Positions 22,763 to 45,489 of a stretch of DNA of 64,000 bases are shown here, piece after piece. The stretch is from Clostridia bacterium (lineage in GTDB: Bacteria; Bacillota; Clostridia; Christensenellales; Aristaeellaceae). The notes beneath the pieces were generated by a model. It saw only the letters and a program-made list of their open reading frames with translations. It was not told where the DNA came from and ran no database searches. The stretch covers positions 3,337 to 67,336 of the forward strand of contig JAFRLY010000008.1 of NCBI GenBank assembly GCA_017431005.1. The letters run 5' to 3'. Positions within the stretch are counted from its first letter, which is position 1. Every line of letters starts with the position of its first letter. The position numbers were made by a program, and so were the translations under genes.

Positions 22763-22776
22763 CTCCTCCGTCCTCC

Positions 22777-24297: not shown

Positions 24298-24324
24298 ATC
24301 TGTTCACCGCTTTCCTGGTACAGA

Positions 24325-24349
24325 GGGAGCCGGCGGTTCGCCGGCTCCC
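24325..24349 (-). other. Stem-loop after SBP gene (probable mRNA stabiliser or attenuator)
   Basis: GGGAGCCGGCG-GTT-CGCCGGCTCCC; no U tract on the minus strand. Confidence 0.55.
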
Positions 24350-24370
24350 CCGTTTCAGTCGTCTGTTGTC

Positions 24371-25885: not shown

Positions 25886-25945
25886 TGAAAAAACCACCTT
25901 TCATTTTATTAATCAGGCCATCCGGCCTTACTACCGGTTCAGGAT

Positions 25946-26842
25946 TTACCCCTTTACAGCGCCGATTGTCATACCTTTGATAAAATAGCGCTGCAGGAAG
26001 GGATACAGAAGAATAATCGGCCCCACGGTCACACACGTCATCGCCATCTTCATACTGGCCGACGGGATGTCCATGGAGGAAATGGTGGTCACTTCCCCGG
26101 CAGCTGCCATCTGCTTCATCGCCTGGATGCTTGCCAGGATCTGCTGCAGCAGATACTGCAGGCTCTGCATCTGAGGCTTTGAAATAAACAGCATGGAATA
26201 ATACCAGTCATTCCAGTATGCCAATGCGGTAAACAGCGTCAGCGTGGCCACCAGCGGCTTGGTCAGCGGCAGGATCAGCTTCATAAAAATCTGCATATCG
26301 TTTGCGCCGTCGATCTTGCCGCTTTCAGTGATTTCAAATGCAATACCCTTCATGTAGTTCTTGGCCAGAATCACGTTCCATACTGAGAACATCAGCGGCA
26401 GGATCCGGGCAAGATAATTATCCTTGAATCCCAGATAGGTGGTGCACATCAGGTACCATGGAACAAGTCCGCCGTTGAACAGGGTCGTGAAGAAGAAAAA
26501 CAGGGAAAAATGGTTGTGCCATCTGAAGTCGCGCCGCGCCAGCACATACCCCGTCATGGACGCGATGGCCACTGCCAGCACCGTACCGATTCCCGTCACA
26601 AGGATCGTATTGCCGTAAGCCCAGAGAATGCGTGACGGATTGGAAAAGATGAACCTGTATGCCTCAACGGAAAACTCCTCCGGCCACAGTCCGTATCCGT
26701 TCCGAAGCAGCGATACCTCGGAGGTGAAGGAAGACACCAGCACAATGCAGAACGGAATCAGGCAGGCCATTCCAAGAAGAAAGAGCACAAAATAGCTGAG
26801 AAAGGACAGGGTGAGCTTATCCCACTGGATTTTTTTCCTCAT
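25946..26842 (-). CDS. Carbohydrate ABC permease
   Basis: EITESGKIDGA; YWNDW; YPFLQRYFIKG. Confidence 0.92.
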   Translation of the reverse strand: MRKKIQWDKLTLSFLSYFVLFLLGMACLIPFCIVLVSSFTSEVSLLRNGYGLWPEEFSVEAYRFIFSNPSRILWAYGNTILVTGIGTVLAVAIASMTGYVLARRDFRWHNHFSLFFFFTTLFNGGLVPWYLMCTTYLGFKDNYLARILPLMFSVWNVILAKNYMKGIAFEITESGKIDGANDMQIFMKLILPLTKPLVATLTLFTALAYWNDWYYSMLFISKPQMQSLQYLLQQILASIQAMKQMAAAGEVTTISSMDIPSASMKMAMTCVTVGPIILLYPFLQRYFIKGMTIGAVKG

Positions 26843-26858
26843 CGCATATCACCTCTTC

Positions 26859-27815
26859 TCAGAACAGCGAATAGTCCGGCTCAATCCATTTCACCAGCGC
26901 GTTCACCGCCATAATCGTGACGAAGCACAGCACGCTCTGGTAGAAACCTGCAGCCGCCGTCATGCCAAGGTTTGAGTTGCCCAGCATGCTGCGGTAAATA
27001 TATGTGTCCAGAATATCCGTTTTCCGCAGCAGCACGCCGTTATTTCCGATCAGCTGGTAGAACATGCCGAAATCTCCGCGGAAAATCCGTCCCACCGCCA
27101 GCAACACCATGATGATGACCGTGGACAGCAGAGCGGGCAGTGTTACATAGCGGATCTGCTGCCATTTGTTGGCGCCGTCCAGCTCCGCCGCCTCATACAG
27201 ACCCGGGTCAATTCCGGTGATAGCGGAAAGATAGACAACGCTTCCGTATCCGACCGATTTCCAGGCGCTCAGGGTCACCAGCAGCGTCGGCCAGACGGAT
27301 GCTGTTGTGTTGATATTGATTTTGTTTCCCGAAACAATCTCCAGGATCTTATTAATTGCGCCGTATTCATAGCTGAGAAGCGCCTGCACGATAGCTGCCG
27401 CCACAACCCAGCTGATGAAATACGGCAGGAAAATAAAGGACTGAAAGGATTTTTTGAACCATTTGCAGGTAATCTCGTTAAGAAAAACGGCGATAAGCAC
27501 CTCCAGGAAGGTGTTCACCACAATGAAGCCAAAGTTGTAAAGCAGGGTGGCTGATGTCAGCGTTCCCAGCTTGCCTGAGATGAGCAGAAAGCGGAAATTG
27601 TCCAGCCCGTTCCATGGGCTGCCGAATACACCGTCCACATAATTGAACTGCTTGAAGGAAAGAACCAGACCGGACATGGGCAGGTAATGGAAAACCAGTG
27701 TATACAGCACAGCCGGCAGGAGCATCAGCAGCAGCATCCAGTCTTTCCGGATCGTATGCCCGAAGGTTTCCCGCCGGATCCGGACCGGTAAGGCGGGCGG
27801 ATTTTTCTTACTCAT
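26859..27815 (-). CDS. Carbohydrate ABC permease
   Basis: LYEAAELDGANKWQQ; FRGDFGMFYQ. Confidence 0.92.
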   Translation of the reverse strand: MSKKNPPALPVRIRRETFGHTIRKDWMLLLMLLPAVLYTLVFHYLPMSGLVLSFKQFNYVDGVFGSPWNGLDNFRFLLISGKLGTLTSATLLYNFGFIVVNTFLEVLIAVFLNEITCKWFKKSFQSFIFLPYFISWVVAAAIVQALLSYEYGAINKILEIVSGNKININTTASVWPTLLVTLSAWKSVGYGSVVYLSAITGIDPGLYEAAELDGANKWQQIRYVTLPALLSTVIIMVLLAVGRIFRGDFGMFYQLIGNNGVLLRKTDILDTYIYRSMLGNSNLGMTAAAGFYQSVLCFVTIMAVNALVKWIEPDYSLF

Positions 27816-27855
27816 CAGGAACCTTCTCCTTTCAGCAGTCACGGCTGCAGGTCAA

Positions 27856-29061
27856 TCAGGCTGTTTGCCCGGAAGGCGCCGGGTCCGGGTTCTTCCGCTT
27901 CCACAATGTATAACCGGTAAGGATCAGCAGCTCGATTCCGATTGGAATCAGCATCCAGAGATAGATGTCGGAATATCCCGCCTTGTCCGCGATCATGCCG
28001 GCCAGGTAGGAGCCGATACCGCTGCCGATATCCAGGCCGGTATAGAATATAATCTGCGCCATCCCGATCTGGCTCTTGTCCACAGAACGGACGCTCCAGG
28101 CCTGGGTTGTCGGGTTGATGCTGCCGTAGCTCAGCGCGTAAAACAGCGCTGTCACCAGGAACGCCGGCAGGCTTGCAGCATAGTGCAGGGAAACCATCAC
28201 GCCGCCGAAAATCAGCAGCGACGGGATCATCAGGGTCCACGGCGGGATCCGGTCGGACATCCGTCCGAAGAAGGGCCTGGCGAACAGAAGCGTGAAGGCG
28301 TTCACCGTAAAGAACAAGCCGATATTTGCCACTCCGCGCTCGGCTGCCGTCAGCGCGATAAAGGAGCTGACAGCGCTCGCCGGAATCATGGAGACCAGGA
28401 TAAACAGAGTCGGAAATGCGGGACGCCAGTCGATCGTTCCGGGTTTTTGCGGCGTCTTCCTTTTCTCACCGCGCTGAGCCCCTTCAATATCCTTCAGGCA
28501 GAAGCACAGAATCACGGAGATAACCAGCAGCCCGGCGGCAATGCGGAAGGTATTGGCATAGCCGACCAGCTCCACAAGCGTAAGCCCCAGATTCGGCGCC
28601 AGCGCCTGTCCCAGCACTGAGCCGAGGCCGAAAAGACCGATTCCCGCGCCAATCCTGCTTTCCGGCAGCGCCATGGCCGCCAGAGTCGCCAGGCCGACTG
28701 TACAGATGCCCCAGCCGACACCCTGCAGGAGACGGAAAGCATACAGCGCCGCAGCGGAAGTGCTGACGGAAAATCCGAACATGGCAACGGCTATCAGACC
28801 CAGGCCCAGGATGATGCCCTTTCTGTACCGTCCTTCCAGGCTGATCCGTGTCAGCGCCACCCGGCTCGCGATGGATGTAATGGCGAACATTGTTCCCAGC
28901 ATACCTGCCACCGCGTTTCCCAGCTGCAGGTCAACCGCATACATGGGCAGAGTCGGCGTCAGGATATGAAACCCCATCGCGTTAAAAAAATTGACAGCAA
29001 AAATGGTAATAAAAGGAACAGACCACACCGTGTCTGCACGTGCGGTTTTTTTTGAAAACAC
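27856..29061 (-). CDS. MFS transporter
   Basis: About 12 hydrophobic segments, FRLLQGVG, GRMSDRI motif A; GTG start after AAAGGTGG. Confidence 0.88.
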   Translation of the reverse strand: MFSKKTARADTVWSVPFITIFAVNFFNAMGFHILTPTLPMYAVDLQLGNAVAGMLGTMFAITSIASRVALTRISLEGRYRKGIILGLGLIAVAMFGFSVSTSAAALYAFRLLQGVGWGICTVGLATLAAMALPESRIGAGIGLFGLGSVLGQALAPNLGLTLVELVGYANTFRIAAGLLVISVILCFCLKDIEGAQRGEKRKTPQKPGTIDWRPAFPTLFILVSMIPASAVSSFIALTAAERGVANIGLFFTVNAFTLLFARPFFGRMSDRIPPWTLMIPSLLIFGGVMVSLHYAASLPAFLVTALFYALSYGSINPTTQAWSVRSVDKSQIGMAQIIFYTGLDIGSGIGSYLAGMIADKAGYSDIYLWMLIPIGIELLILTGYTLWKRKNPDPAPSGQTA

Positions 29062-29088
29062 CGATATGACCACCTTTCTATGGCTCAG

Positions 29089-29196
29089 AATATACCACAT
29101 AGTACAATTCTGCGTGTCATAAAAAGCAATGCAATCCCCCCGGATGGTAATAAAAAGTATTATTTTCTTGTTTTCAAATCCCCAATCGGCTATAAT
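29089..29196. promoter_or_regulatory. Divergent promoter region for MFS/ABC cassette and AraC
   Basis: Plus strand TTGTTT-17-TATAAT (29168-29196); minus strand extended -10 TGGTATATT (29089-29097); ATAAAAAG direct repeats at 29119 and 29150. Confidence 0.55.
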
Positions 29197-29235
29197 GATT
29201 TCCGGCGAATCACTTTTCAGGAGTCAGAACACACA

Positions 29236-30069
29236 ATGGACAATATCAGCACCGGACTTCCGTCCGATTACGTTTCGCTGGTTTCCTTCTTCATCCGGGA
29301 TGAGGATGAGGAAACGGCGCTTCTTCGTCCGGGAGACACTCTCTTTATTTACTGCCGGACCGGCGTCGTCTCCGTTTCAGACAACGGTATCGTACACAGC
29401 CTGACACCGGGCTGGTTTCTTCTTTCCCATCCCCGGGGCAGCGTTCAGCTCCGGATGTCCGGCATCCATTCAGAGTGCTGCGTGCTGGAAATCGCCTCCG
29501 GCAGGACAGGGATCGCTTCCTGCTCCGCCTCCATTTTCAATTTTCAGGCCTTCGACACCCTGACCCGCCTGGATACTGAGGAAAACCGGATTCTGCTGAC
29601 ACTGAATGAGATAGCCAATGAAATCTCCAGCCATAACGAAGCGGAAAAAAGGATCATGGATCTGCTGTTCAATGTTTTTCTGGTCAAGCTGGAGCGGGCC
29701 GTCCAGTCCCACGGGCGGGCCACCGGCTTTCGTTATGTTTCCGAAGCCAAGCAGTTCATCCGTGAAAACCTCAGCGGCAGCATCACTGTTCAGACCCTTG
29801 CCGATCATCTCGGCATTCACCGTTCTTACCTGATGAGTATTTTCCGCCAGCAGACGCATATGAGCGTCAAAAAATACATCAACCGTATGCGGATCACCCA
29901 GGCCACCATTCTGCTGACAAATTCGGATCTTTCCGTCACGGAAATCGCTTTCCAGGTTGGTTATAACAGTCGTCAGAATTTTTACGTCGCCTTTGAGAAA
30001 ACCTTCGGCTGCTCACCCAGCCAGTTCCGCGTATCCCAGGTTGCCGACGGAAGATGGCGGACAGAATAA
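29236..30069 (+). CDS. AraC-family transcriptional regulator
   Basis: LADHLGIHRSYL...EIAFQVGYNSRQNFYVAFEKTFGCSPSQFR double HTH. Confidence 0.92.
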   Translation: MDNISTGLPSDYVSLVSFFIRDEDEETALLRPGDTLFIYCRTGVVSVSDNGIVHSLTPGWFLLSHPRGSVQLRMSGIHSECCVLEIASGRTGIASCSASIFNFQAFDTLTRLDTEENRILLTLNEIANEISSHNEAEKRIMDLLFNVFLVKLERAVQSHGRATGFRYVSEAKQFIRENLSGSITVQTLADHLGIHRSYLMSIFRQQTHMSVKKYINRMRITQATILLTNSDLSVTEIAFQVGYNSRQNFYVAFEKTFGCSPSQFRVSQVADGRWRTE

Positions 30070-30118: not shown

Positions 30119-31852
30119 TTATTTTGGAATCACCGGCAGAATCAGTCTGGAAGGATGTTCTGCGTCATGCCAGATTTTCTGGTGTGCCACAACGCCCTCC
30201 GATTCATATCCCACCCTGCCGAAGGTGTTCAGGTTCCTGTCCGCGTCCGGGAAAAGGGAGCTGGTCACATCCAGCCGGATGGCTTCACCGGGCTGGAGTA
30301 CGATGCAGGTGTTCCCCGCCTCAATCTCAAACCGGTAAATTTCTCCGGGCACCATCTCCTCGGCATGCGGCCCGTTGCGGTACCGGCCGCGCACCAGCAG
30401 CGCTCCCAGCTTATAGACCGTCCCGTCCTTTCTGACAACGCCGACCCGTGCGCAGAAGTCTGTATCCCGCGCGCTGGTGGAAGCGTAGATCACTGCCTTC
30501 AGCGGGCCGGTAATCTCCGTTTCTTCAGTAAATGCCGGTGTTGTATAAACCAGCACATCGTCCCGCGTCTGAAGCAGCGCCTGGTTCTGCATCAGGTTTT
30601 TCAGCGGTTCTCCCGTCCCGGAGGGGCAGGGGTTCATGGGATCATAGTCATACGCGTCCGGTGCTTCCCTGCCGGCGGGCTCCGTTGACAGCGTTCCGTC
30701 ACCGTTCAGCGTGTTGGCATGTCCGGCCGAATGCAGGTAGTAGTCCGTAAATACCGTCCGTGCCAGCGGCCATTCATATTCATCCCGCCAGATGTTGGGA
30801 CCCATCACGAAAAGGCTGATCGGTGCGCCGGAGGTGTAGGCTGTTTCCTTTCCCTTGCACCAGTGGTCAAACCACTGCGCCAGCCGGTCCGTGACGCCGA
30901 AGTCATCGCCGGAGCCCTGCGGTCCGTAATACACGCCTTCGATCCAGCCCTCCAGCCGGTCGCTGTGAACCCACGGCCCGACAATCAGCTTTGAATGCTT
31001 TCTGCAGGCCTCGCTGCCGCCGCGCTTCACAAACTGGGTATAGTTATAAATCGTCTTGTCTCTCAGAAAATCGTTCCAGCCGGTCAGGTTCAGCGTCGGA
31101 ACCGTGGTTTCCTCAAAGCCCTCCACCCGGCCGATGGAAGCAAGATATTCCTGATTGTCAATGTTTTCCAGCAGCTCACGGTGGAAACGCAGCTCGGGCA
31201 CCCCTTCCACATTGCCCGCCGGCATGTCTTTCATAGGCAGCCAGTTCACCTGCTCCATCATATCGAAGCTGTTCATTTTCGCCACAGCCTCCGGCGAGTA
31301 CTGATCCGGGAAATACTTCAGCCGATCCAGGGCCCGCCCGGTGATCCACCCGAACAGCACCGGGGAAAAGATGCCGAAATCATAGATCGCCGGAAATTTC
31401 GTCCAGGAGGTCATGAATGGGCAGATGGCTTTCAGATGGGGCGGATTCGCCCTGGCGCACGCCAGCTGGGAAAAGCCGTGATAGCTTTCCCCCAGCATGG
31501 CCACATTCCCGTCGCACCACGGCATCCGCGCAATCGCCTCAATGGTGTCGTATCCGTCCTCGTCCTGATGCCCCGCCGGATCGCAGACGCCTTCGGAATG
31601 GCCGGTTCCCCGCACATCCTGAATGACCACATTGTATCCGCAGCCGGCCAGGTGATGGGCATGGATATAGCCGGCCAGATGCCCGGTATTGTCCTTCAGG
31701 TAAGGGGTACGGTTCACAATGGCCGGATAGGGCCTGTCATCATCCGGGCGGTATACGTCCGCGTACAGCGTTACGCCGTCGCGGGTCTTTACCGGAACGT
31801 TGTACAGGATTCTGACATCCTGTATCTCATGCCCGTTCAGGGTCATCGGCAT
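30119..31852 (-). CDS. CocE/NonD-family hydrolase (peptidase S15-like)
   Basis: TRDGVTLYADVYRP, RTPY, QDVRGTGHSEG, GESYHG, GPWVH; PepX C-terminal domain. Confidence 0.92.
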   Translation of the reverse strand: MPMTLNGHEIQDVRILYNVPVKTRDGVTLYADVYRPDDDRPYPAIVNRTPYLKDNTGHLAGYIHAHHLAGCGYNVVIQDVRGTGHSEGVCDPAGHQDEDGYDTIEAIARMPWCDGNVAMLGESYHGFSQLACARANPPHLKAICPFMTSWTKFPAIYDFGIFSPVLFGWITGRALDRLKYFPDQYSPEAVAKMNSFDMMEQVNWLPMKDMPAGNVEGVPELRFHRELLENIDNQEYLASIGRVEGFEETTVPTLNLTGWNDFLRDKTIYNYTQFVKRGGSEACRKHSKLIVGPWVHSDRLEGWIEGVYYGPQGSGDDFGVTDRLAQWFDHWCKGKETAYTSGAPISLFVMGPNIWRDEYEWPLARTVFTDYYLHSAGHANTLNGDGTLSTEPAGREAPDAYDYDPMNPCPSGTGEPLKNLMQNQALLQTRDDVLVYTTPAFTEETEITGPLKAVIYASTSARDTDFCARVGVVRKDGTVYKLGALLVRGRYRNGPHAEEMVPGEIYRFEIEAGNTCIVLQPGEAIRLDVTSSLFPDADRNLNTFGRVGYESEGVVAHQKIWHDAEHPSRLILPVIPK

Positions 31853-31854
31853 GT

Positions 31855-33324
31855 TTATTCTCCTTTCACCCATGCACCGCGGGCTTTCTCCTCCGGCACG
31901 TCGAACCCGCCCACGGACACGCGTACCGTGGAAATATCCGCCCCGTTTTCGTCAAAGCGGAAGGTCAGGTAATGGACACGGCAGGACTCCAGCCACCGCA
32001 GCTCCAGGCGCAGCGTTCCGTCCTCCTCAAAGGCGCCCGTCATGCAGGCTGTCCGCGCCGGGTTGCTGCTGACCGGTTCAACATCTGACAGGATCCGCTG
32101 GCCCTTCAGGCCGACAGGGCAGAATACTGTCCTGCCCCTCGCCGTCACGCCCAGCGTCAGATCGCCGTTCCGGGCTGTAAAGGTAAAGGCCTCCACCGGC
32201 GTGTCATATGCCAGGTTGAAGATGCACAGATCATCCGCGAAGAAACGCGCTTTCCCCTCCGTGACCTTCAGGGTGCGTCCGTCCAGCTTCCGAAGCGCAG
32301 CCCGGTTCTCGCCGTAGCGCGGCGCCGGAATCGCAAGGCAGGACAGCCGCCGCTCAAAAGCACGGGTCTCCTCCTGTGTCCACGGCACCGCTTCATCCCG
32401 CAGCCCGGCAGCGAAATCCGCCAGAGCCGTACGGACACGGTCAACCGTTTCCTGGCTGGTAATCGTCTCCTGAATGGAAATAACCGTATCCTTTTCAGGG
32501 AAGAGCATACTCCACTGGCCCATGGCGCCGTCCGCCATCATGAAGCCCGGATACATCCACATCATGCCGCCGTAGGTCGCCCCGTCCGAATGCGGATTCT
32601 GAACCTGCAGAGCAAAATCAACCCATTCCCGGCACAGGATCTGTTCTCCGTCCCAGACGCCTTTCCGCCGGTACAGTTCCATCAGCAGCGCGTTATCCCG
32701 GACCGTTGAAATCCAGCCGCCGCTGCCGTTTTCCAGTCCGTCCGCGTGCTTATGCCAGGCGATCCGCCCCGGATCAATTCCGATCTTCTCAAACACACGC
32801 GGCGTCAGATAGTCAATGAGACCCAGCCCTGTCTTTTTCCGGATGCACGCGCCGACCATGGAGCAGGCGATGCTGTTGTAATACAGCGCGGTCCCAGGCT
32901 GATGGACGATATCCATCGTAAAGAATTTTTCCACCCATTCCGGGTCCGTCACCGGAGGCTGGCTCTCCATGCCTGTACCCATCGTGCAGATATGGCGCAC
33001 CTTCAGCTCATCCCACCATTGTTTTCCCTGCGTATGGTGCGCATACTCGGGGAACAGATCGATAAGCCTGTCCTCCAGGGACAGCAGTCCTTCCGTGACG
33101 GCCGCGCCCAGAGCGATGCCCGTCAGCGTCTTGGTCAGGGACTGATCCCCGTGGATGATTCCGGGGCCGTAAGGCGCCCAGTAGCCCTCAAAGGCAGGGA
33201 TGCCGTGACGCATCACCAGCAATGCGTGCGGTTCCGTCCCGGAGGCTTCGATAGCATCCAGTAAACGATTGGCGTCCCCACAGGAGACGCCAACCGTACC
33301 CGGATGCTGAAATTTCCAGATCAT
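31855..33324 (-). CDS. Serine hydrolase, beta-lactamase class C-like
   Basis: SLTK, YNS, DGAMGQ; paralogue of 22777-24297. Confidence 0.85.
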   Translation of the reverse strand: MIWKFQHPGTVGVSCGDANRLLDAIEASGTEPHALLVMRHGIPAFEGYWAPYGPGIIHGDQSLTKTLTGIALGAAVTEGLLSLEDRLIDLFPEYAHHTQGKQWWDELKVRHICTMGTGMESQPPVTDPEWVEKFFTMDIVHQPGTALYYNSIACSMVGACIRKKTGLGLIDYLTPRVFEKIGIDPGRIAWHKHADGLENGSGGWISTVRDNALLMELYRRKGVWDGEQILCREWVDFALQVQNPHSDGATYGGMMWMYPGFMMADGAMGQWSMLFPEKDTVISIQETITSQETVDRVRTALADFAAGLRDEAVPWTQEETRAFERRLSCLAIPAPRYGENRAALRKLDGRTLKVTEGKARFFADDLCIFNLAYDTPVEAFTFTARNGDLTLGVTARGRTVFCPVGLKGQRILSDVEPVSSNPARTACMTGAFEEDGTLRLELRWLESCRVHYLTFRFDENGADISTVRVSVGGFDVPEEKARGAWVKGE

Positions 33325-34859
33325 TTGGATTCCGCAATGAAGGCATCCAGCTGCGTCCGGTAGTCATTCACGATATCGTCAATGCCGATGGCCTTGCACT
33401 GCTTGATGAACTCATCCAGCTTGGCTTCGGTCTGGTCGCCGAAAATGCCGAAGGAGAAGGAGAAGCGGTATTCGTTGAACAGTGCCGTCACCGCGGACAG
33501 CTCCGCCTCGTAGTTGCACTGATAGTTGAATCCGTTGACCGGGAAGATATCAGACGGAACCTCCGCCGCCTCATACATTTCCTGGTATTCCGCGATGGCG
33601 GGGTTCAGCGCCTGCCGCGGATCCGAGTCATGCTGCAGAGCGGCGTTGTTGCCGATCGCGAAATAGGGATATTCAGAGGCTTCCGGCCCAAGGGTGTAAT
33701 ATTTTCCGTCCTCGGACAGATTGTAGTGGCGTCCCTCGATACCGAACACCAGCAGACGGTTGATGATCGGATCGTTCTTCATGACGTCCAGGGCGGTGGC
33801 TGCCCGGCTCATGTTCGCCTTGCTGGCCGGCGGGAAGCCGATGCAGTACACAAAGTAGTTGCCGTGGCGGAGCACGCACTCGTCATCCCACAGGCAGTTC
33901 AGGAATACGGGGGTATCATCCTGGAGATTCTGCACCAGGCTGTCGTAGCTGGTGGGAATGCCGAAGGTGATGGCAGAGGTGCCGGCGTAGAAGTTGTCGT
34001 CCACCATGGTCTCATTGGAGATAACGCTGGCCGGGAAATAGCCCTTCTTGTAGAATTCGGCCATCTTCAGGCAGAAGGCGCGGTATTCATCCGTCTCCGC
34101 GAACCACTTCAGATCCTCGGTGCTGAATTCCTTGCCGGTGTTGTACTGCCACACCAGCCAGTTGGCCGTGCCGACATTCACATCCATCATGTGGTTCTTG
34201 TAGGTGAACCAGTAGGTGGTATCCAGCGGATAGGTACCCTGGGGATTGAAGACATAGACGCCGGTTTCGGCGGTATCAGCGGCGATCGCGTCCATGAACT
34301 TCTCCAGATCCTCGCCGGTCTTGATATCCTCCGCTTTGAAGCCGTATTTGTCCAGGGTGGACTGGCGGGTCCAGACGCCGTTGGCGCTCAGCGTGTTGAT
34401 GCTGTTGGTGATGCCGTAATACAGGTCGCCGAACTTCATCTCACGCCAGCTGGTGGGCGCCTGGGTCTTGGCTGTCATGGGCATATAGGTTTCCACAAAG
34501 TCCCAGTCAAAGCCCGTGTAGGCGCCGTTGTTGACATAGTCGCCGAAATTGAACCAGTACGCGCCGTACACCAGATCATAGTCATCCCCGTTCAGGAACA
34601 GGCTCAGCTTGGTGCCGAAATCCGCGTAGGAAACAAAGTCGATGTTAACCTTGGTGTTGATCAGTTCCTTCATACGGTCATTGACCATGCCCATGATCTC
34701 GTCAAAGGCCCCCGGCTTGTTGCCGGGAATGATCATATTGATCTCCTTGTACTCGGACAGGTCCAGTCCGGCCCAGGGATTCTCCTCTTCAGCAGCAGCT
34801 GTGCCGATGGCACCCAGCAGCATTGCCAGTATCAGGAGCAGAGACAGGATACGTTTCAT
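33321..34859 (-). CDS. ABC transporter solute-binding protein (DUF3502-type)
   Basis: Signal peptide ending AAA-E; paralogous to 24371-25885 (e.g. CLKMAE.YK.G, NF.AGTS). Confidence 0.88.
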   Translation of the reverse strand: MKRILSLLLILAMLLGAIGTAAAEEENPWAGLDLSEYKEINMIIPGNKPGAFDEIMGMVNDRMKELINTKVNIDFVSYADFGTKLSLFLNGDDYDLVYGAYWFNFGDYVNNGAYTGFDWDFVETYMPMTAKTQAPTSWREMKFGDLYYGITNSINTLSANGVWTRQSTLDKYGFKAEDIKTGEDLEKFMDAIAADTAETGVYVFNPQGTYPLDTTYWFTYKNHMMDVNVGTANWLVWQYNTGKEFSTEDLKWFAETDEYRAFCLKMAEFYKKGYFPASVISNETMVDDNFYAGTSAITFGIPTSYDSLVQNLQDDTPVFLNCLWDDECVLRHGNYFVYCIGFPPASKANMSRAATALDVMKNDPIINRLLVFGIEGRHYNLSEDGKYYTLGPEASEYPYFAIGNNAALQHDSDPRQALNPAIAEYQEMYEAAEVPSDIFPVNGFNYQCNYEAELSAVTALFNEYRFSFSFGIFGDQTEAKLDEFIKQCKAIGIDDIVNDYRTQLDAFIAESK

Positions 34860-34929
34860 GTGTAATCCTCCTTTAAAAAATTGGTACATATTTCCAGGAA
34901 CGGTTTCCTCCGTTCCGGTGGATCATGTT

Positions 34930-35835
34930 TCAGCCCTTCACCGCGCCGATGGTCAGTCCTTTCACAAAGTAGCGCTGCACCAGCGGGTAAAGGAAAATAA
35001 TCGGGCCAGTCACCACGCAGGTCATGGCCATTCGCATGCCGGTGGAGGGCAGCGTGGCTGTTTCCACGGCCTGGAACTGGCCCTCAGCCACCAGCTGCTT
35101 CAGTGCCTGAACCGTACCCAGCATATCCTGCAGGAAATACTGCAGCGACTGCATTTCCTCCTTCGTGCTGAACAGCATGGAGTTGTACCAGTCATTCCAG
35201 TACCCCAGGGCGGAAAACAGCCCCAGCGTCGCCAGCAGCGGGGTGGCCAGCGGCATATACAGCTGCGCGTAGATCCTCAGTTCCCCGGCGCCGTCCAGCT
35301 TGGCCGACTCAGAGATTTCAAAGGGAATGCTCTTCATGTAGTTCTTGGCGATAATCATGTTCCACACGGAGAAAACCATGGGCAGAATCAGCGCCAGGTA
35401 TGTATTCCGCAGGTGCAGCACCTTCGTATACAGGGAATACCACGGAATCAGGCCGCCGGAAAACAGCGTGGTGAAGAAGAAAAAGAAAGAGAAGCCGTTC
35501 CGCCATTTGAAATCCCTGCAGGACAGCACGTAGCCCGTCAGCGTGTTCAGCAGCAGGGACACGGCCGTCCCCACGGCGGTTACAAAAATCGTGTTCAGGT
35601 AAGCTCTGCCGATCCGTCCAGGATTGGTGAACACCATCTCGTAGGCCCGGAGGGAAAACTGCTGCGGAATAAGCTGAAACCCGTTCCGGATCAGCGACGA
35701 TTCCTCCGCGAAGGAGGAAACCAGAATCAGGTAGAACGGAATCACGCACAGCATTCCGAAGATGAACAGCAGCACATACCCGAGCCCGTAAAAGCTCCAT
35801 TCACTGACTGACTGTTTATATCTGCGTCCGGACAT
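34930..35835 (-). CDS. Carbohydrate ABC permease
   Basis: EISESAKLDGA; YWNDW; YPLVQRYFVKG. Confidence 0.92.
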   Translation of the reverse strand: MSGRRYKQSVSEWSFYGLGYVLLFIFGMLCVIPFYLILVSSFAEESSLIRNGFQLIPQQFSLRAYEMVFTNPGRIGRAYLNTIFVTAVGTAVSLLLNTLTGYVLSCRDFKWRNGFSFFFFFTTLFSGGLIPWYSLYTKVLHLRNTYLALILPMVFSVWNMIIAKNYMKSIPFEISESAKLDGAGELRIYAQLYMPLATPLLATLGLFSALGYWNDWYNSMLFSTKEEMQSLQYFLQDMLGTVQALKQLVAEGQFQAVETATLPSTGMRMAMTCVVTGPIIFLYPLVQRYFVKGLTIGAVKG

Positions 35836-35849
35836 GTCACTCGCCTTCC

Positions 35850-36800
35850 TCAGAACAGGGTGTAATCGGGCTGAATTTTCTTCACTACGAAGTTGGCTGC
35901 CAGGATTGTCACAAAGCACAGCAGCGACTGAAACAGTCCGGCCGCCGCGCCGTATCCGAGGTTGCCGTTCCCCGCCATTGCCCGGTAAACATACAGATCC
36001 AGAATGTCGCCGATCTCAAGCAGCACGCCGTTATTGCCGATCAGCTGGTAGAACATGCCGAAATCCCCGCGGAAAATCTGTCCGCAGGCCAGCAGGAACA
36101 TGATGACCATGGTCGGAATCAGGCTTGGCAGCGTAATGCTGAACACCTTCTGCCAGCTGTTGGCCCCGTCAATCTCTGCGGCCTCATACATTTCACTGTC
36201 AATGCCGGTGATGGCGCTCAGATAAATGATGCTTCCGTATCCCACACCCTTCCACATCCGGAAAAAGACCAGCAGAAACGGCCAGGGGCGTTTGTCCACA
36301 TAGACGTTGACCATATCCAGACCCAGGCTTTTTACGATGCGGCTGATCAGCCCTGTATCATAATCCAGCATCGTCTGAACCACAGCCGAGGCAATAACCC
36401 AGGAGATGAAATAGGGCAGGAAGATGAAAGACTGGAACACCTTCTTGAACCATCTGCAGCGCATTTCATTGATGATGATGGCAAACCCGACCTCCAGCAC
36501 CATCCCCACCACAATGAACGCCAGGTTGTACAGCAGCGTGTTCCGCGTCAGCGGCCACAGCTTGTTGGATACCGTCAGGAACCGGAAATTCTTCAGCCCG
36601 ACCCACGGACTGTTGAAAATGCCCAGGGAAAAATTGTATTTCTCAAAAGCCATCACCACGCCGACCATTGGCGCATAGCTGAATATCAGCACATACACGA
36701 CCGCCGGCAGCAGCAGAATCAGGTAAATCCTGTTCCTTTTCAGTTCCCTGGGAAGTTCCCTGAACCCGCTTCTGCGGCCGGCAGAGGGATTTTTCGTCAT
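35850..36800 (-). CDS. Carbohydrate ABC permease
   Basis: MYEAAEIDGANSWQ; FRGDFGMFYQ; start 2 nt after the upstream stop, with GGAGG RBS. Confidence 0.92.
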   Translation of the reverse strand: MTKNPSAGRRSGFRELPRELKRNRIYLILLLPAVVYVLIFSYAPMVGVVMAFEKYNFSLGIFNSPWVGLKNFRFLTVSNKLWPLTRNTLLYNLAFIVVGMVLEVGFAIIINEMRCRWFKKVFQSFIFLPYFISWVIASAVVQTMLDYDTGLISRIVKSLGLDMVNVYVDKRPWPFLLVFFRMWKGVGYGSIIYLSAITGIDSEMYEAAEIDGANSWQKVFSITLPSLIPTMVIMFLLACGQIFRGDFGMFYQLIGNNGVLLEIGDILDLYVYRAMAGNGNLGYGAAAGLFQSLLCFVTILAANFVVKKIQPDYTLF

Positions 36801-36802
36801 CC

Positions 36803-37990
36803 TTATTCCTCCTCCTGCGCGTCCTCCGCGGAAATGAAGACGCTGCGGACGCCGGAAAGCCGGTACGCCGCGTCCCTTGGTTTTGTCACACCCATAAAGA
36901 ACAATCCGCTGTGATAGGTAATCAGGAAGGCGCCGCCGGAAAGCGGCATGGCCTCTCCCTCCGTCCGGATCCAGCGCCATCCGAGCCTCTCGGACAGCCC
37001 GTTCCCGGGCGGCATCAGTCCTGCCAGCTTCAGGATTTCAGGCACCTTCAGGCCGGGTTCTGCCCCGACATTGCTGAAAGCGCAGTTCCCTGTTGCCGGC
37101 TCCGGGATCCCGGTTGTCAGCCTCACCCATCCGTCGCCGCCGGTGAAATGCAGGGTTTCCCGGGTACCGGGCAAAGCCTTCCGGCCTTCCGGATCCAGAG
37201 CGTACCACAGTGCGGAATCCCGGCTGTAATCGCAGGCCGGATCCGTCATGGCTTCAGTATCCATCAGCTGAAGCTCTCCGTCCGCCAGTCGGAAACCGCT
37301 GTCCCACTCATTCAGGTTACCCACCAGATCCCAGATACCGTCCGTTCTTCCGTTATGTGTCCACGGCACGGGACCGCTCCCGGTCAGCACAGACCCGCTC
37401 TGTGTCCGGATGCCGGTCTCCTCATGATGATAGTAATCCCGTCCCCGGTCCGTGTTTCCCGTCACTTCCCGCCCGTTTTTCAGGCACTGAAGGGAAATAG
37501 CCGCCCGGAGGGAAACCGGCATCGGCATCCATCCGGCTCCCTTGCCCTTCACGCTTTTCACCGCGTCGTCAAAGCAAGGGATCCCGGCCGGCTCGCTCAT
37601 CGGCAGGGAAACTGCCCTTCCGTCCGCCAGGCAGTTCAGATATTTGGAAACATAGATTCGCCGAAGTATTTTTCCTCCCACCCGGAAAGCCGGATGTGCG
37701 CCTTGCAGCTGAATCCCCTCCGGCATGTCCGCGCCTGTGACCGCCGGAACAATGACCATGACGGAAGGCAAACCCCCGGCGTCGAACAGAACGGTATTGG
37801 TGCCGCCGGAAAGCTTCTCCACGGCCTTTTTCAGCACGCTTCCCGCCTGTTCCGTTTTTCCGTTATCCTCCAGGCCGCGCAGCTCTTCCAGTTCATCGCT
37901 CACCTTTTCCGGGCATCCGGAAACCCTGCACTCATTGATCAGAATCTGACTGAAGCTGATTTCCCGCAGTGACTTTCCATACATATCCAT
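36803..37990 (-). CDS. FGE/SUMF1-type C-type lectin-fold protein resembling phage major tropism determinant (DGR target family)
   Basis: HPAF, SKY, GIWDLVGNLNEW and C-terminal SGGAF...GLF...R...GVR pattern of CLec/FGE domains; no signal peptide; RBS AAGGAG. Confidence 0.75.
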   Translation of the reverse strand: MDMYGKSLREISFSQILINECRVSGCPEKVSDELEELRGLEDNGKTEQAGSVLKKAVEKLSGGTNTVLFDAGGLPSVMVIVPAVTGADMPEGIQLQGAHPAFRVGGKILRRIYVSKYLNCLADGRAVSLPMSEPAGIPCFDDAVKSVKGKGAGWMPMPVSLRAAISLQCLKNGREVTGNTDRGRDYYHHEETGIRTQSGSVLTGSGPVPWTHNGRTDGIWDLVGNLNEWDSGFRLADGELQLMDTEAMTDPACDYSRDSALWYALDPEGRKALPGTRETLHFTGGDGWVRLTTGIPEPATGNCAFSNVGAEPGLKVPEILKLAGLMPPGNGLSERLGWRWIRTEGEAMPLSGGAFLITYHSGLFFMGVTKPRDAAYRLSGVRSVFISAEDAQEEE

Positions 37991-38082: not shown

Positions 38083-38119
38083 ATTATAATTGACATGCTT
38101 TTCCAATGTGGAATATAAT
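38083..38119. promoter_or_regulatory. Overlapping divergent promoters
   Basis: Plus strand TTGACA (38090)-18-TATAAT (38114) towards AraC; minus strand TATAAT (38083-38088) with a poor -35, consistent with activator dependence. Confidence 0.65.
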
Positions 38120-38214: not shown

Positions 38215-39060
38215 ATGCCATATCCATACGCAGTCAAACTCCTTCTCTGGCCTTCTTCCGGCCAGACAGTGGATGTTTTATCACCTTTGGAGATTGCGGC
38301 AGGCCCGGAAGAAAACATTGTCCTGCTGCTTGCCTCCGGGCGGGCTGAGATCACCTGTGACCAGGCTGTCAGCCCCCTGAATATGGAGGGTATCGCCGTG
38401 CTCGGCCGGAACATCGCGGTAACTGTAGAAAGCAAGGGCGCGCAGCCCTGTCAGATCATGATCCTGCGGCTGGGCACTGTTGAACGGCCGCCCTATATTG
38501 ACCTGAACCATCTGTGCCTGACCATTCCCATCATTGATGCCTTCTTCAGCTATAAGCAGCGCTTCTCTATCCTGCAGGACCGCGGAAGCATCCGGCCGAC
38601 CTTCAACGCCGTTATCGAAGAAATCAGCCGGCATGAGCCCGAATGGGAAAAAATGACGGCCCTGCGTCTGCAGGAGCTGCTGATCCAGCTGGCCAGGTCC
38701 TTCCATACCCACGGCCATCCCGCAGGCACACAGCTGCTCTCCGCTGCCCGGGATTACATCCGCGCGCATTACAATGAGGAGCTGACCGTCGGCAGAATCG
38801 CCGCCCACGTGGGCATCAGCCGCTCCTATCTGGCCCAGCTGTTTTCCGGCTATCTGGATTACAGCACCGTGGATTACATTCAGGCCGTACGCTGCGACCA
38901 CGCTGCCTATCTGCTGCGTGCGACACGCTTTACCATCCTCGATATCGCCCTGAATGTCGGCTTCAACAGCCGTCAGCATTTCACGCGCACCTTCCTCAAA
39001 ATCTACTCCGTCACCCCCATGCAGTACAGGAAGCAGCAGCGCAGCAATACCCGCACATAA
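38215..39060 (+). CDS. AraC-family transcriptional regulator
   Basis: IAAHVGISRSYL...DIALNVGFNSRQHFTRTFLKIYSVTPMQYR. Confidence 0.92.
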   Translation: MPYPYAVKLLLWPSSGQTVDVLSPLEIAAGPEENIVLLLASGRAEITCDQAVSPLNMEGIAVLGRNIAVTVESKGAQPCQIMILRLGTVERPPYIDLNHLCLTIPIIDAFFSYKQRFSILQDRGSIRPTFNAVIEEISRHEPEWEKMTALRLQELLIQLARSFHTHGHPAGTQLLSAARDYIRAHYNEELTVGRIAAHVGISRSYLAQLFSGYLDYSTVDYIQAVRCDHAAYLLRATRFTILDIALNVGFNSRQHFTRTFLKIYSVTPMQYRKQQRSNTRT

Positions 39061-40040: not shown

Positions 40041-41156
40041 ATGGGTGAAACAAGGGAATATCCGAATCTGTTTGCGAAAATCGGTGTGGACGCGGAGACG
40101 GTACGCCGGAAGGCGGAGGCCTGCTTTGAAACCCTGTTCTTTGATCCGGAAGAAAAAATCTATACCGATGTGGATCCGGACAGCGGCTGCATGATCGACA
40201 CCGGGAACATCGACGCCCGCACGGAGGGCATGAGCTACGGCATGATGATGTGCGTGCAGATGGACCGGAAGGATCTTTTTGATAAGCTCTGGACCTTTTC
40301 CATGCGCTATATGTATCATCCGGACGGCATCTATGCCGGCTATTTCGCCTGGTCCGTATCCCTGCAGGGGAAGCACAACGCGGAAGGTCCCGCCCCGGAC
40401 GGGGAGGAATACTTCGCCATGGCGCTGCTGATGGCCTCCGCCCGCTGGGGAGACGGTGAGGGTATCTTCAGCTACGCTGCGCAGGCCCGTGAAATCCTGC
40501 GCCACTGTCTCCATCAGCAGGAGCTGGTGCCCGGCGGCCGGGCCATGTGGGATCCGGAGAACAGGCTGATCCGGTTCGTCCCGGAAACGGACTGGTCCGA
40601 TCCCAGCTATCATCTGCCGCATTTCTACACGCTTTTTGCCGAACGGGCCGACGAGGCGGACCGGCCGTTCTGGAAGGCCGCTGCGGAAGCTTCCAGGGCT
40701 TATATCGCGCTCAGCGCGCATCCGGTGACCGGCCTGTGCGCGGAATACGCGGAGTATGACGGCACGCCCCGCCTGATGTTTGGTAAGCCCTTCGCCTTCT
40801 ATTCCGACGCCTACCGCGTCGCCATGAATATCGCCCTGGACACCCTGTGGTTCGGCCGGCACGAAGCGCTTTCGGCCGTGGCGGCCCGTATCCAGGATTT
40901 CTTCCGGGATATTCACATGGAGGACTATAAGGCTTATCAGCTGGACGGCACTCCCGCGGACGAGCCTGCCATGCACCCCACGGCGCTTCTTGCCACCGTG
41001 GCCGCCGCGTCCGCGGCCAGTGACAGTCCCGCCGCGGAGACGTTCCTGCGCCGTTTCTGGGAGACCCCGCTGCGCCGCGGCAAACGCCGGTATTACGACA
41101 ACTGTCTTTATTTCTTCTGCCTGCTGATGCTGGGCGGCCTGTACCGGATCTGGTAA
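40041..41156 (+). CDS. GH8 reducing-end xylose-releasing exo-oligoxylanase
   Basis: DARTEGMSYGMM, PAPDGEEYFAMAL, DPSYHLPHFY, SDAYR, RYYDNCLY; no signal peptide. Confidence 0.9.
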   Translation: MGETREYPNLFAKIGVDAETVRRKAEACFETLFFDPEEKIYTDVDPDSGCMIDTGNIDARTEGMSYGMMMCVQMDRKDLFDKLWTFSMRYMYHPDGIYAGYFAWSVSLQGKHNAEGPAPDGEEYFAMALLMASARWGDGEGIFSYAAQAREILRHCLHQQELVPGGRAMWDPENRLIRFVPETDWSDPSYHLPHFYTLFAERADEADRPFWKAAAEASRAYIALSAHPVTGLCAEYAEYDGTPRLMFGKPFAFYSDAYRVAMNIALDTLWFGRHEALSAVAARIQDFFRDIHMEDYKAYQLDGTPADEPAMHPTALLATVAAASAASDSPAAETFLRRFWETPLRRGKRRYYDNCLYFFCLLMLGGLYRIW

Positions 41157-42169: not shown

Positions 42170-42964
42170 TCACACGGCATAGGAATGCAGTCCCGGCAGC
42201 AGCAGGTTCACCCCGGCGAAAGTGAAGATCACCAGGATCAGCGCGATGATCGCCAGCCATGCCATGCGTCTGCCCTGCCATTTGAGGCGCATCCGCTGAT
42301 GCAGATAAACCGCGTAGAAAATCCAGGTGATCAGCGCCCAGGTTTCCTTCGGATCCCAGCTCCACCAGGAGCTCCATGCCTGCTCCGCCCAGATGGCGCC
42401 GGAGAAAATCACGACGGTCAGCAGCAGGAAGCCAAGGCAGATCAGCCGGTATCCCATATAGTCCATCTGCTTCATCTTCACGTCGTCCTCGCTCCTGCCC
42501 TTCTTCAGCTGCGCCAGATAACTGACGCCCAGTCCGCCGGCGATCGCGAAGGCGGCATAGGAGAAAGCGGCGCTGCCGATATGCAGCACAAACCAGGTCG
42601 AGCGCAGGGCCGGCATGATGTCCTTGATTTCCATCGGCTGGAAGGCTGCGTAGCTGAGGATCAGGAAGGCCATCGGCATGGCAGCGGTCATCACCCATTC
42701 CTGCTTCAGCCTCCGGTACAGCACAAAACCGATGATCACCGTCGCCCATGCGAATCCGGAAGCGAATTCAAACTGATTGGCCAGCGGTACGCGCCGGGCC
42801 TCAATGCCCCGCCAGACCGAAAAGGCCGTGTGCAGCCCGAAGCTGACCGCCAGCAGCACGCGGGCGGTTTTCCGCAGTCCCTCCTTTTTCATGGAGGAGC
42901 CTGCAAACTGAAGCACCGCGGCGGCAAAATAACCGATCAGAGCAGCGAAAAACAGAAGATTCAT
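42170..42964 (-). CDS. ccsA: Cytochrome c biogenesis system II protein CcsA/ResC
   Basis: GAIWAEQAWSSWWSWDPKETW WWD domain; PALRSTWFVLH; GLHSY. Confidence 0.95.
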   Translation of the reverse strand: MNLLFFAALIGYFAAAVLQFAGSSMKKEGLRKTARVLLAVSFGLHTAFSVWRGIEARRVPLANQFEFASGFAWATVIIGFVLYRRLKQEWVMTAAMPMAFLILSYAAFQPMEIKDIMPALRSTWFVLHIGSAAFSYAAFAIAGGLGVSYLAQLKKGRSEDDVKMKQMDYMGYRLICLGFLLLTVVIFSGAIWAEQAWSSWWSWDPKETWALITWIFYAVYLHQRMRLKWQGRRMAWLAIIALILVIFTFAGVNLLLPGLHSYAV

Positions 42965-44208
42965 GTTTCATCCTCCTTTTCATGCATCAGCGCTTCCAGT
43001 TCCAGCAGCAGGCCCTGCTGATTTTTCGGGGACAGGACCGCGCATCCGTTCTCCCGCACGCGCACATAAACCGGCACCGCGAAGAAGCACAGGTACAGGG
43101 CGGCGACCATCAGTCCGAAACTGAAATACAGGCCGCCGAACAGCCAGGAAGACACGCGCTTGATCCGCAGGCCCGGATATTCCGCGGGGGCAAGGAAGGT
43201 AAAGCTGATATCGCCGAGGCGTATCTCCTCATCCGGAAAAGCCAGCACGGAGGTGGACATGCCGTCCGCAATGGACCGGACGGCATAAACAGGATGCTCA
43301 TAGCTGCCGGACGTACTGGTCATCAGGGTGTAGTTCCCTTCCGCGTCCTGGATAAAGCCGGGATAAAGCGCGTCAAAATATACGCCGTTCTGTCCGTCAA
43401 TGGAGAGGAAGCACGGATCGGTCAGGAACAGGATTTCCTCCGCGCCGTTTGTATGGTTCGTGATGCCGACCCGGCCGGCAGTGCCGTAGGTCTGCTGGTA
43501 TATCTTGTATTCTCCGAAGCGGAGGGGCTCGTTCACCCGGATTTCCTGCCGCTTCTGATGCCGGCCGTCAGCGCTGCCGGCCAGCAGCACGCTCGCGTAG
43601 TCCAGCTTGCCCGTATCATCCTGGATGTGAAAGCTTTCACAGGTGACCGTCGTACCGTCCTCCAGCGTCAGCGTCCCGCCCGGCATAACCGTCAGATCCT
43701 GAACGCTCGGCGTCATCAGAACCAGGGAGCCGAAGAGCAGAATCAGCAGAATGGACAGGTGGGTCAGAAAGGAGCCGTAAAAACCGGCGGTGTTCCTGCT
43801 GAACGTTTTGCCGTCCGCATCCTCCCGCGCTCTGTAATGCCGCGCGGTCAGCCAGGCCAGCAGCTTTTCCCGCTGCTCAGCCGTCAGCGGCCGGTCCGCT
43901 TCGGCGGCTTCCGCCCGCGCGAGCCATTCCCGGCCGGCCCGCCTGGTTTTCGGAAAGCGGACAATGGAACAGAGCGTCAGGTTCAGGCACAGCAGAATCT
44001 CCAGGGCATAAAAATACCAGGTATGAAAAATATCCGTCACGCCCGCCGCGGTCATAATCTGCGCCGTCTGCGTGCCGTAGGCCCGTACATAGCGCATGGT
44101 GCTGTCCTGCTGCGGGATCAGCGATCCCGCCAGCGAAAGAAGCATCACGATGATCAGCAGGATCATGCCGAACGTCATGGAACGAAAGAACCGGAAAACT
44201 TTCTTCAA
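42961..44208 (-). CDS. resB: Cytochrome c biogenesis protein ResB/CcsB
   Basis: GSLIPQ, DIFHTWYF, NLTLCS, FLTHLS, VNEPL, YQQTYG; TTG start; overlaps ccsA. Confidence 0.9.
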   Translation of the reverse strand: MKKVFRFFRSMTFGMILLIIVMLLSLAGSLIPQQDSTMRYVRAYGTQTAQIMTAAGVTDIFHTWYFYALEILLCLNLTLCSIVRFPKTRRAGREWLARAEAAEADRPLTAEQREKLLAWLTARHYRAREDADGKTFSRNTAGFYGSFLTHLSILLILLFGSLVLMTPSVQDLTVMPGGTLTLEDGTTVTCESFHIQDDTGKLDYASVLLAGSADGRHQKRQEIRVNEPLRFGEYKIYQQTYGTAGRVGITNHTNGAEEILFLTDPCFLSIDGQNGVYFDALYPGFIQDAEGNYTLMTSTSGSYEHPVYAVRSIADGMSTSVLAFPDEEIRLGDISFTFLAPAEYPGLRIKRVSSWLFGGLYFSFGLMVAALYLCFFAVPVYVRVRENGCAVLSPKNQQGLLLELEALMHEKEDET

Positions 44209-44251
44209 AGCGTAATCCTCTCCGCGTATTCAGTTTCTGTTCTGAAGCATA

Positions 44252-44291
44252 CGGAACGGGAGGGCCTTGCGGTTTCCCGCCTCCCGTTCCG
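44252..44291 (-). other. Stem-loop between nrfA and resB
   Basis: CGGAACGGGAGG...CCTCCCGTTCCG 12-bp stem with weak U tract. Confidence 0.6.
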
Positions 44292-44298
44292 CGAAGGA

Positions 44299-45489
44299 TC
44301 AGGTTCCGAGCAGGCCGAGGGCTTCGTCGATCAGCGATTCAGCCTCGTCCAGGCAGCTGTTGTCCAGCCTGGAGTTGTGCGCGCCTTCACTGTTCTCCAC
44401 AAATACGAAATCCCAGAACCACTGCCCCTTGCGGTTGAGTTCCCGCACGGCGTCCAGCTGCTCTTCCGTGTATTTGCCGGAGGCGACGGCGTCAGCCAGC
44501 TTGTTGGTAAGATCTTCCAGCTTCGTACCGACAGCGATGGTGCGCTCCTCCATTTTTTCCTGAATGCCGTGTACAAAGGCAGTCAGATCCGCATGGCAGG
44601 CGGCGCAGCTGGCCTGAATGGACTCGCTTTGCAGCGGGCTGATCAGCGTATGGCTGCGGTAGGTGGTTCCGTCTTCCGCTTTGACCTTTTCCATATGGCA
44701 GTCCGCGCAGGTGAACATCGAGGAATGAATGCTGTTCTTGCCCATATAGGTCTCGAACTCCGGATGCTGCGCCTTGAGCTGGCGAACGCCGGTCCGCGGA
44801 TTGGTATAATCCGCGAAATCCATCGCCTGATAATACGCGTACATGTCCTCAGGATTGGCCACGCCCATGCCGGTGTAGGGCAGCGTGGTGGCCTTGGAAT
44901 CGGGATCGAAGTAATACTCCACGTGGCACTGGCCGCAGGCCGCGGTGGCGGCAGCCACCTTGTCCGCGTCCTCGCCCATGGCATTCACCAGGTAGAGGTG
45001 CGTGAGGGTCACGCCCTGAGCCGGGTCGTTGGCATGGCAGGTGAAGCAGCCAACATCCTGCTTCATATCCGCCGCCAGGTCGTCAAAGGGGAGCGCATAG
45101 GCGCTGTCACCCATTTCCAGGGTCATATGGGTGAAGTCCGCCGTTTTGCAGGTGAAGCAGTTTGCCAGCTTATGGGGGCGGCCGGTAGCCGTAAGATCCT
45201 GGATGCAGTAATAGTGTCCCCGTGCGCTGCCGTAGTAGGTGCTGAAGGCGTTGCCTTCATACACCGTGGCAAGCATGGGATACTCCGTCACATGATCCAT
45301 GACCTCGCTGTTTCCGGCATTGGCCATGTAGCTGGCATATACGTCCGGGTAGGTGCTTTCCCACTGGTCCGCCGGGATCATGGTAACCCCGGTGCCGGTT
45401 TCCGCCACCTGGGCGGGAGCGGCCTGGGCCAGGCCCATGACGCACAGGAAAAGCACTGCCACGAACGCAGCTGCAGCAAGCTTTTTCAT
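44299..45489 (-). CDS. nrfA: Ammonia-forming pentahaem cytochrome c nitrite reductase (c552)
   Basis: CFTCK plus CFTCH, CGQCH, CADCH and CAACH; ARGH, CHVEYYF, KAQHPEFE, ENSEGAHN; signal peptide. Confidence 0.93.
   Translation of the reverse strand: MKKLAAAAFVAVLFLCVMGLAQAAPAQVAETGTGVTMIPADQWESTYPDVYASYMANAGNSEVMDHVTEYPMLATVYEGNAFSTYYGSARGHYYCIQDLTATGRPHKLANCFTCKTADFTHMTLEMGDSAYALPFDDLAADMKQDVGCFTCHANDPAQGVTLTHLYLVNAMGEDADKVAAATAACGQCHVEYYFDPDSKATTLPYTGMGVANPEDMYAYYQAMDFADYTNPRTGVRQLKAQHPEFETYMGKNSIHSSMFTCADCHMEKVKAEDGTTYRSHTLISPLQSESIQASCAACHADLTAFVHGIQEKMEERTIAVGTKLEDLTNKLADAVASGKYTEEQLDAVRELNRKGQWFWDFVFVENSEGAHNSRLDNSCLDEAESLIDEALGLLGT

Follow-up and report, generated by a model that had tools for sequence, protein, structure and literature searches.

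A TaqVP-family C-type lectin protein without a diversity-generating retroelement, likely captured from a prophage, heads a catabolic operon in Clostridia

The window, as the whole analysed stretch of 64,000 nucleotides from a Clostridia bacterium is called here, contains a gene for a protein with the fold known as C-type lectin (CLec) at the head of a catabolic operon. By sequence and structure homology, the whole CLec domain of this protein belongs to the TaqVP-type family of variable proteins of diversity-generating retroelements (DGRs). The gene is not an active DGR target, as it lacks a template repeat (TR), RT/Avd, and a hypervariable C-terminus. It has been retained for a long time in its host context under purifying selection. 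Comparison of the sequences indicates that transfer from phage to cell, in a single capture from a Clostridia prophage, is likely. A phage origin combined with a cytoplasmic role in the pathway of the operon is considered quite probable, and the chances are about even that the captured protein now acts, without its DGR, as a cytoplasmic enzyme on an imported, de-acylated compound. The features of the locus are listed in Table 1.

Table 1. Position of the CLec-fold gene, its parts and its neighbours in the window.
Feature	Position	Strand	Remarks
CLec-fold gene, TaqVP-family, cellular clade without DGR	36803..37990	(-)	395 aa
Variable-region equivalent, residues 350-382	36845..36943	(-)	clade-fixed L350, A354, H360, F365, G367, T369, Y376, L378
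N-terminal three-helix bundle, residues 8-64	37799..37969	(-)	mainly beyond the TaqVP alignment (begins at residue 43)
ABC permease 1	35850..36800	(-)	ATG 2 nt past the CLec stop; BPD_transp_1
ABC permease 2	34930..35919	(-)	probable true start 35835; BPD_transp_1
Solute-binding protein (SBP), DUF3502	33321..34889	(-)	carbohydrate-uptake type
Class C beta-lactamase-fold serine hydrolase	31855..33324	(-)	SxxK + Tyr present
CocE/NonD hydrolase	30119..31873	(-)	nearest solved structure that of cocaine esterase (E 1e-78)
AraC-family regulator, divergent	38215..39060	(+)	
Overlapping divergent sigma-70-like sites	38083..38119	(.)	minus strand 10/12, plus strand 12/12

The reading frame reported in a preliminary description of this DNA is present with every motif listed there, and its TAA is followed by GG and the permease ATG, in agreement with the stated distance of 2 nt. 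Domain matches agree with the described order of permease, permease, SBP, serine hydrolase, and CocE opposite an AraC gene. The reported absence of a signal peptide is matched by the lack of a hydrophobic N-terminus, judged by hydropathy only (best 11-residue Kyte-Doolittle mean of 0.98 within the first 45 residues). The sigma-70-like sites between the divergent genes are consensus matches only, with five seen against 3.8 expected. The stretch of the window from 29 to 41 kb contains no Rfam family. RT, Avd, a template repeat and phage genes were described earlier as missing from the window, and comparison of 51 window ORFs with Pfam revealed no phage hallmark. The window's own assembly, which is 85% complete, contains no RVT_1 match and neither a paralogue nor a second copy of the 3' end of the gene, the part proposed as a query for the template repeat.

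The CLec protein has no match in Pfam or NCBIfam, including PF03781, but is matched by PHROG 2889 with an E-value of 9e-84. Its sole sequence match in the PDB is TaqVP (5VF4; E 1.6e-33, and 1.6e-67 in a second comparison), the variable protein of a Thermus aquaticus prophage DGR (PMC6328139). The structure model (pLDDT 96) superimposes on TaqVP with a Z-score of 48.2 and a rmsd of 1.9 Å over 340 residues at 32% identity, while the runner-up reaches a Z-score of 13.3. In the fold search, TvpA, PvdO, CarF, EgtB, an FGE paralogue, and Mtd lie between 11.8 and 13.3. Thus, the Mtd-like fold proposed earlier holds as far as the FGE-subtype CLec fold is concerned, but the nearest solved relative is TaqVP and Mtd itself scores just 11.8. 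In the window protein, the canonical RGG.W, GFR, and GNVWEW have become SGGAF, GVR, and GNLNEW. Residues 8-64 form an additional three-helix bundle in the model, and N-terminal extensions are also present in some phage members. A search of the ESM Atlas returned phage-type FGE-sulfatase clusters only and nothing usable for the N-terminal bundle. Longer fused forms of the protein were not retrieved, but this search is weak, since it also missed known long phage forms.

The resemblance to TaqVP extends to the whole-domain fold, the same inserts, the C-terminal variable region, and a single globular CLec domain (PMC6328139). In contrast to TaqVP, the window protein has neither TR, Avd nor RT, its variable residues are fixed, an N-terminal helical bundle is added, RGG.W is replaced by (C/S)GGA(Y/F) in the cellular clade, and the setting is a cellular catabolic operon. 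The PHROG 2889 DGR targets of FP_Lagaffe, Saumur, BalMu-1, VHML, and Clostridia prophages show about 27-41% identity and colinear motifs, but they are located after baseplate/tail genes and before Avd and/or RT, and their site varies. Mtd of Bordetella phage BPP-1 and TvpA of Treponema have the CLec fold in its FGE subtype as well (Z-scores of 11.8 and 13.3, respectively), at 12-15% identity; both are active DGR targets, and Mtd is a multidomain trimer. FGE/SUMF1, EgtB, PvdO, CarF, ToxD, and CalU17 are cellular proteins with the same fold (Z 9-13), some of them catalytic, and provide a precedent for an active site in a CLec-type fold. The window protein differs from them in belonging to the TaqVP branch and in lacking PF03781 and the Ser/Cys/Cys triad. 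Paralogues of cyanobacterial DGR variable proteins are likewise CLec genes, dispersed outside DGR cassettes and in part lacking homology to a TR; in the parts of PMC7517822 that concern them they are cellular, mostly kinase- or peptidase-fused signalling proteins, neither of phage type nor located in catabolic operons.

The viral relatives of the CLec gene are real DGR targets. The protein search gave 103 matches, 56 of them (P0002-P0057, the first being the window's own) at 39-100% identity. An alignment of 48 of these 56 proteins was used as query and led to 25 genome loci, 23 metagenome loci, and 365 viral matches. The scan patterns for genomes and metagenomes were clade-specific, so phage-type copies could not be returned by those scans. 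Among the best 80 of the 365 viral matches, none of which exceeds 41% identity, an A-biased repeat (at least 60% of mismatches at A) occurs in 44 of the 62 loci whose downstream sequence reaches 1 kb or more, and a repeat of any kind in 51. Homologues of RT and Avd accompany 53 and 52 of these 80 loci, respectively. In the annotated phages Lagaffe, Saumur, and BalMu-1, baseplate/tail genes are followed by the TaqVP-family gene and then by Avd and/or RT, and three more distant marine phage genes have no annotated RT within the stretch examined. The cellular loci present a different picture: a template repeat was found in none of the 42 with at least 1 kb downstream, and homologues of RT, Avd, and baseplate proteins in none of the 49. 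No clade member occurs among the best 80 of the 365 viral matches, and 12 plasmid records hold no clade-level match (best 34%). A genome-wide search for a template repeat was negative in four carriers, namely the window's own assembly and three others, two of which are single-chromosome assemblies. Some RT is present in eight of ten carrier genomes tested, but these RTs are unrelated or belong to prophages.

The segment equivalent to the variable region is under purifying selection in the cellular clade. Nine disjoint pairs yield a dN/dS of 0.067 for residues 350-382 against 0.178 for the body, whereas ten pairs of DGR targets give 0.91 in the variable region and 0.088 in the body; a simple counting method was used, and some of the DGR pairs are near synonymous saturation. 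The earlier wording "frozen in one variant" is therefore apt. An independent DNA run yielded a 744-base contig over the variable region with five differences. The nine variable residues of TaqVP align to L350, A354, I357, H360, G367, K370, A374, Y376, and L378, and across 75 sequences of the clade six of these nine positions are fixed to 87-100%, H360 to 100%. Outside the variable region, N227, W338, and R339 are invariant and W340 and C303 are conserved to 95%, and all of them differ from the phage members. N227 takes the place of the first Trp in GNVWEW, which is probably the active-site Trp of FGE. The role of the active-site Trp in FGE is described in part of PMC6676471. The strands predicted to hold C303, R339, and G367/T369 match the sheet beneath the TaqVP ligand site, following the topology in PMC6328139. 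Mapped through TaqVP (PMC6328139), FGE Ser333, Cys336, and Cys341 (human numbering) correspond to A354, I357, and a position near H360. With the triad absent and PF03781 unmatched, an identity as formylglycine-generating enzyme was rejected.

All 30 de-duplicated cellular loci form a single clade together with 45 database proteins. In a 45-row mixture-model tree that excludes the variable region, the cellular clade has a support of 100/99; a tree with prophage homologues had been suggested earlier, and the operon-linked copies do group together. Rooting on proteobacterial phage proteins, a root that lies inside the TaqVP family itself, places the cellular clade among the DGR targets. Closest to it there are L097 and L107, both prophage targets from Clostridia, and three proteins without known context. 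The nearest relatives outside the clade are thus phage DGR targets rather than ordinary FGE, EgtB or PvdO enzymes, the kinship that the preliminary description had set against its own reading. Three observations make a capture from phage likely: the breadth of the phage family, which ranges from Thermus to Vibrio, the letters common to FGE, EgtB, and Mtd (GNVWEW, GG.W), which phage members have kept, and the proximity of the clade to one prophage subgroup.

Operon linkage was counted over 49 cellular loci, or 32 after de-duplication at 90%; kin are not independent, so locus counts overstate the number of events. The CLec gene is followed by a permease in 42 loci, a serine hydrolase in five, and the contig end in two. 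It is preceded by a divergent AraC gene in 40, the contig end in six, and other genes in three. In the loci with at least 6.5 kb downstream, serine hydrolase and CocE are present in 32 of 32 (21 of 21 after 90% de-duplication), and the SBP in 28 of 32. The proposed linkage to an ABC cassette is therefore conserved, but the core partners are the serine hydrolase and CocE and not the importer. These two are the firmest partners of the CLec gene, co-inherited with it and kept where the ABC genes are lost. Five loci lack the importer, and an ABC_membrane/ABC_tran pair or an MFS gene is found nearby in four of these five. Comparison of the CLec tree with each hydrolase tree showed 11 of 14 supported splits in common and none of the 14 conflicting. 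Even where pairwise identity falls to 35%, the CLec gene keeps its place as first gene of the operon, and in many loci its stop overlaps the permease start. In 20 aligned orthologues of the serine hydrolase, S62xxK65 and Y149 are invariant. Solved structures match the SBP weakly (E about 2e-9). Frequent extras are two esterases, an MFS gene, and a second serine hydrolase, and the neighbours include carboxylesterases, GH2, GH31, GH43, and GH95.

The cassette is distributed unevenly. Among 201 genomes of Acetatifactor, the genus of L018, a CocE orthologue (62-64%) occurs in four and adjoins the CLec gene each time; a fifth carrier has the gene on a short contig. In the window's own genus, the clade gene and CocE are present in one of 54 genomes, which marks the cassette as accessory. 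Directly downstream of the operon, at 19745-30069 of the window, lies a paralogous cassette without a CLec gene that contains AraC, MFS, two permeases, a DUF3502 SBP, a serine hydrolase, an esterase, and a carboxylesterase; such importer-esterase operons can hence exist without CLec. L005 and L015 are flanked by similar tandem cassettes. In L012, L013, and L044, an upstream ABC_membrane + ABC_tran heterodimer stands in place of the SBP-dependent importer, and a MoaF-like gene and a carboxylesterase are close by in L012 and L013. In two metatranscriptome runs of one study, the gene for the SBP is matched by contigs at no less than 99% and none covers the CLec gene, which is uninformative on its expression; three further entries labelled as RNA share sample and size with DNA entries.

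In the proposed pathway, the AraC protein would induce one transcript of the whole operon, and the importer would take up an acylated oligosaccharide or glycoside. The two serine hydrolases would then split ester or amide bonds of the imported compound in the cytoplasm. A de-acylation pathway is suggested by the SxxK and Tyr of the serine hydrolase and the closeness of CocE to cocaine esterase, and the substrate class, an acylated sugar or glycoside, by the families of the neighbouring genes only. Bile-acid chemistry was not adopted, as the serine hydrolase falls well short of the cut-off for 3-succinylated cholic acid synthase (147 of 800 bits). Having no export signal and staying with the hydrolases when the transporter is exchanged, the CLec protein likely acts inside the cell on the same compound. 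Its phage ancestor would have been a tail-region receptor-binding protein, although receptor binding by TaqVP-type phage proteins is itself deduced from gene position. H360, R339, N227, C303, T369, Y376, W338, and W340 may surround a pocket for a small molecule on what used to be the receptor-binding face. These polar, near-invariant fixed residues would fit catalysis or a metal site somewhat better, by a small margin, than plain binding. Given a phage origin and a cytoplasmic role in the pathway, catalysis by the CLec protein is slightly favoured.

The origin proposed here has to be weighed against a reversed or sister relation, in which the phage DGR targets arose from or beside a cellular protein of long standing in Clostridia. 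The AU test does not reject a root on the cellular stem (p-AU 0.31), in a tree that leaves out the poorly aligned Mtd and nine other rows, and the midpoint root of the large tree is the cellular stem. For this reason, the domestication of a phage protein put forward in the preliminary description is retained as the likely direction, well founded as regards the nearest outside relatives. When four FGE-family proteins served as outgroup, in runs that included a quick tree, the root was never on the cellular stem, yet its position shifted between runs. No outgroup ML tree places it there, and the clade is nested among phage homologues in every one of these ML trees. Moreover, the phage family spans phages of Thermus, Bacillota, and Proteobacteria, whereas every named cellular record comes from Bacillota; the FGE/EgtB/Mtd letters are altered in the cellular clade, and its nearest Clostridia prophage targets carry the CGG motif. 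A reversed direction is accordingly judged improbable. Still less credible, to the point of being very improbable, is a gene that a remote DGR continues to diversify in trans, an alternative raised in the preliminary description and not supported here. Remote targets do exist, according to parts of PMC5758913 and PMC7517822, and in one carrier genome there is a DGR prophage whose target belongs to this family (L177). Against this, the variable region is more conserved than the body, the template repeat is absent from the own assembly and three other carriers, RT is absent from the own assembly, and the independent contig differs at five of its 744 bases.

With the same phage origin, the protein could instead be a non-catalytic cytoplasmic binder that holds, channels or detoxifies the compound or the released acid, or that signals to AraC or a partner enzyme. 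The fixed aromatics W338, W340, F365, and Y376 are suited to stacking, and the fold search also brings up proteins other than FGE with this fold, among them CarF and ToxD. Binding is also the ancestral role of that face (PMC6328139). An invariant His, Arg, and Asn together with a 95% conserved Cys would be more typical of active sites, however, and the gene is kept in three loci without adjacent AraC and in five without an adjacent permease, so that the binder is regarded as a possible but rather unlikely reading. A passenger or anti-phage accessory, that is, a relic or decoy riding with the cassette and taking no part in its chemistry, would be in keeping with the phage origin of the gene and the patchy occurrence of the cassette. 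Its position at the operon head down to 35% pairwise identity and the congruent trees speak against this, as do its retention through transporter exchange, its coupling to the next gene, and the predicted cytoplasmic location, and such a passenger is thought to be distinctly unlikely.

The domestication of phage genes is well known in general. Parts of PMC5758913 and PMC7517822 report remote DGR targets as well as DGR-protein paralogues that lie dispersed, and PMC8867640, in the portion relevant here, deals with domesticated retroelements and not with frozen targets. Titles and abstract openings found in a literature search mention no DGR target of phage type that has become fixed within a catabolic operon, and neither this clade nor this operon; DGR target tables in surveys would omit such genes as targets, though they may mention them otherwise. 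The idea that TaqVP-like proteins gain enzymatic activity has been raised and doubted (PMC6328139). DGRs are studied as engines of ongoing variation, and what a winning variant later becomes is for the most part an open question. The clade described here is a natural case in which selection has fixed the variable positions themselves within a catabolic operon, and it makes the question of whether DGR output can become a fixed metabolic function directly testable. Cultured carriers are Acetatifactor muris DSM 23669 (L018) and Eisenbergiella porci (protein WP_321003859.1), with close DGR-active relatives as controls. The operon also points to a gut pathway, as yet uncharacterised, for acylated compounds of dietary or host origin. 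A tentative, broader reading is that one DGR variant gained chemistry at the hypervariable face, lost its retroelement, and founded an enzyme family of gut Clostridia, with a second, independent capture in Acetatifactor. If this were true, the DGR would have acted as a natural directed-evolution machine.

Several observations concern other members of the family. A. muris DSM 23669 holds an intact DGR prophage target (L177:2964-6103) in addition to the operon-type gene (L018), and this target belongs to the phage subgroup nearest to the operon clade, which provides a built-in comparison. A second TaqVP-family group with an identical variable-region segment occurs in three genomes of the same genus (L181:5163-6287, L182:5013-6146, and L183:5067-6200). 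No repeat, RT, Avd or baseplate match is present within the 10-11 kb around these genes, and the L181 gene is flanked by genes for carbamoyl-phosphate synthase and a PilT-like ATPase. As the group stands apart from the operon clade in the trees, it probably represents an independent capture. TaqVP-family homologues with a C-terminal extension and without a template repeat are found at L185:5148-6416 and L184:5188-6276, that of L185 amid an apparent phage early/replication module (exonuclease, SSB-like) and not among tail genes. In the viral loci L053, L058, L060, and L103, three or four tandem variable-region-like copies, some with A-biased mismatches, follow 3' of the target as arrays of alternative C-termini beside or replacing a single template repeat. 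Elsewhere in the window, a cytochrome c552 (NrfA-like) gene is accompanied by ResB and cytochrome c assembly genes at 42170-45489, and GH8 and GH43 glycoside hydrolases at 40041-41156 and 58548-60038 fit a xylan-using host.
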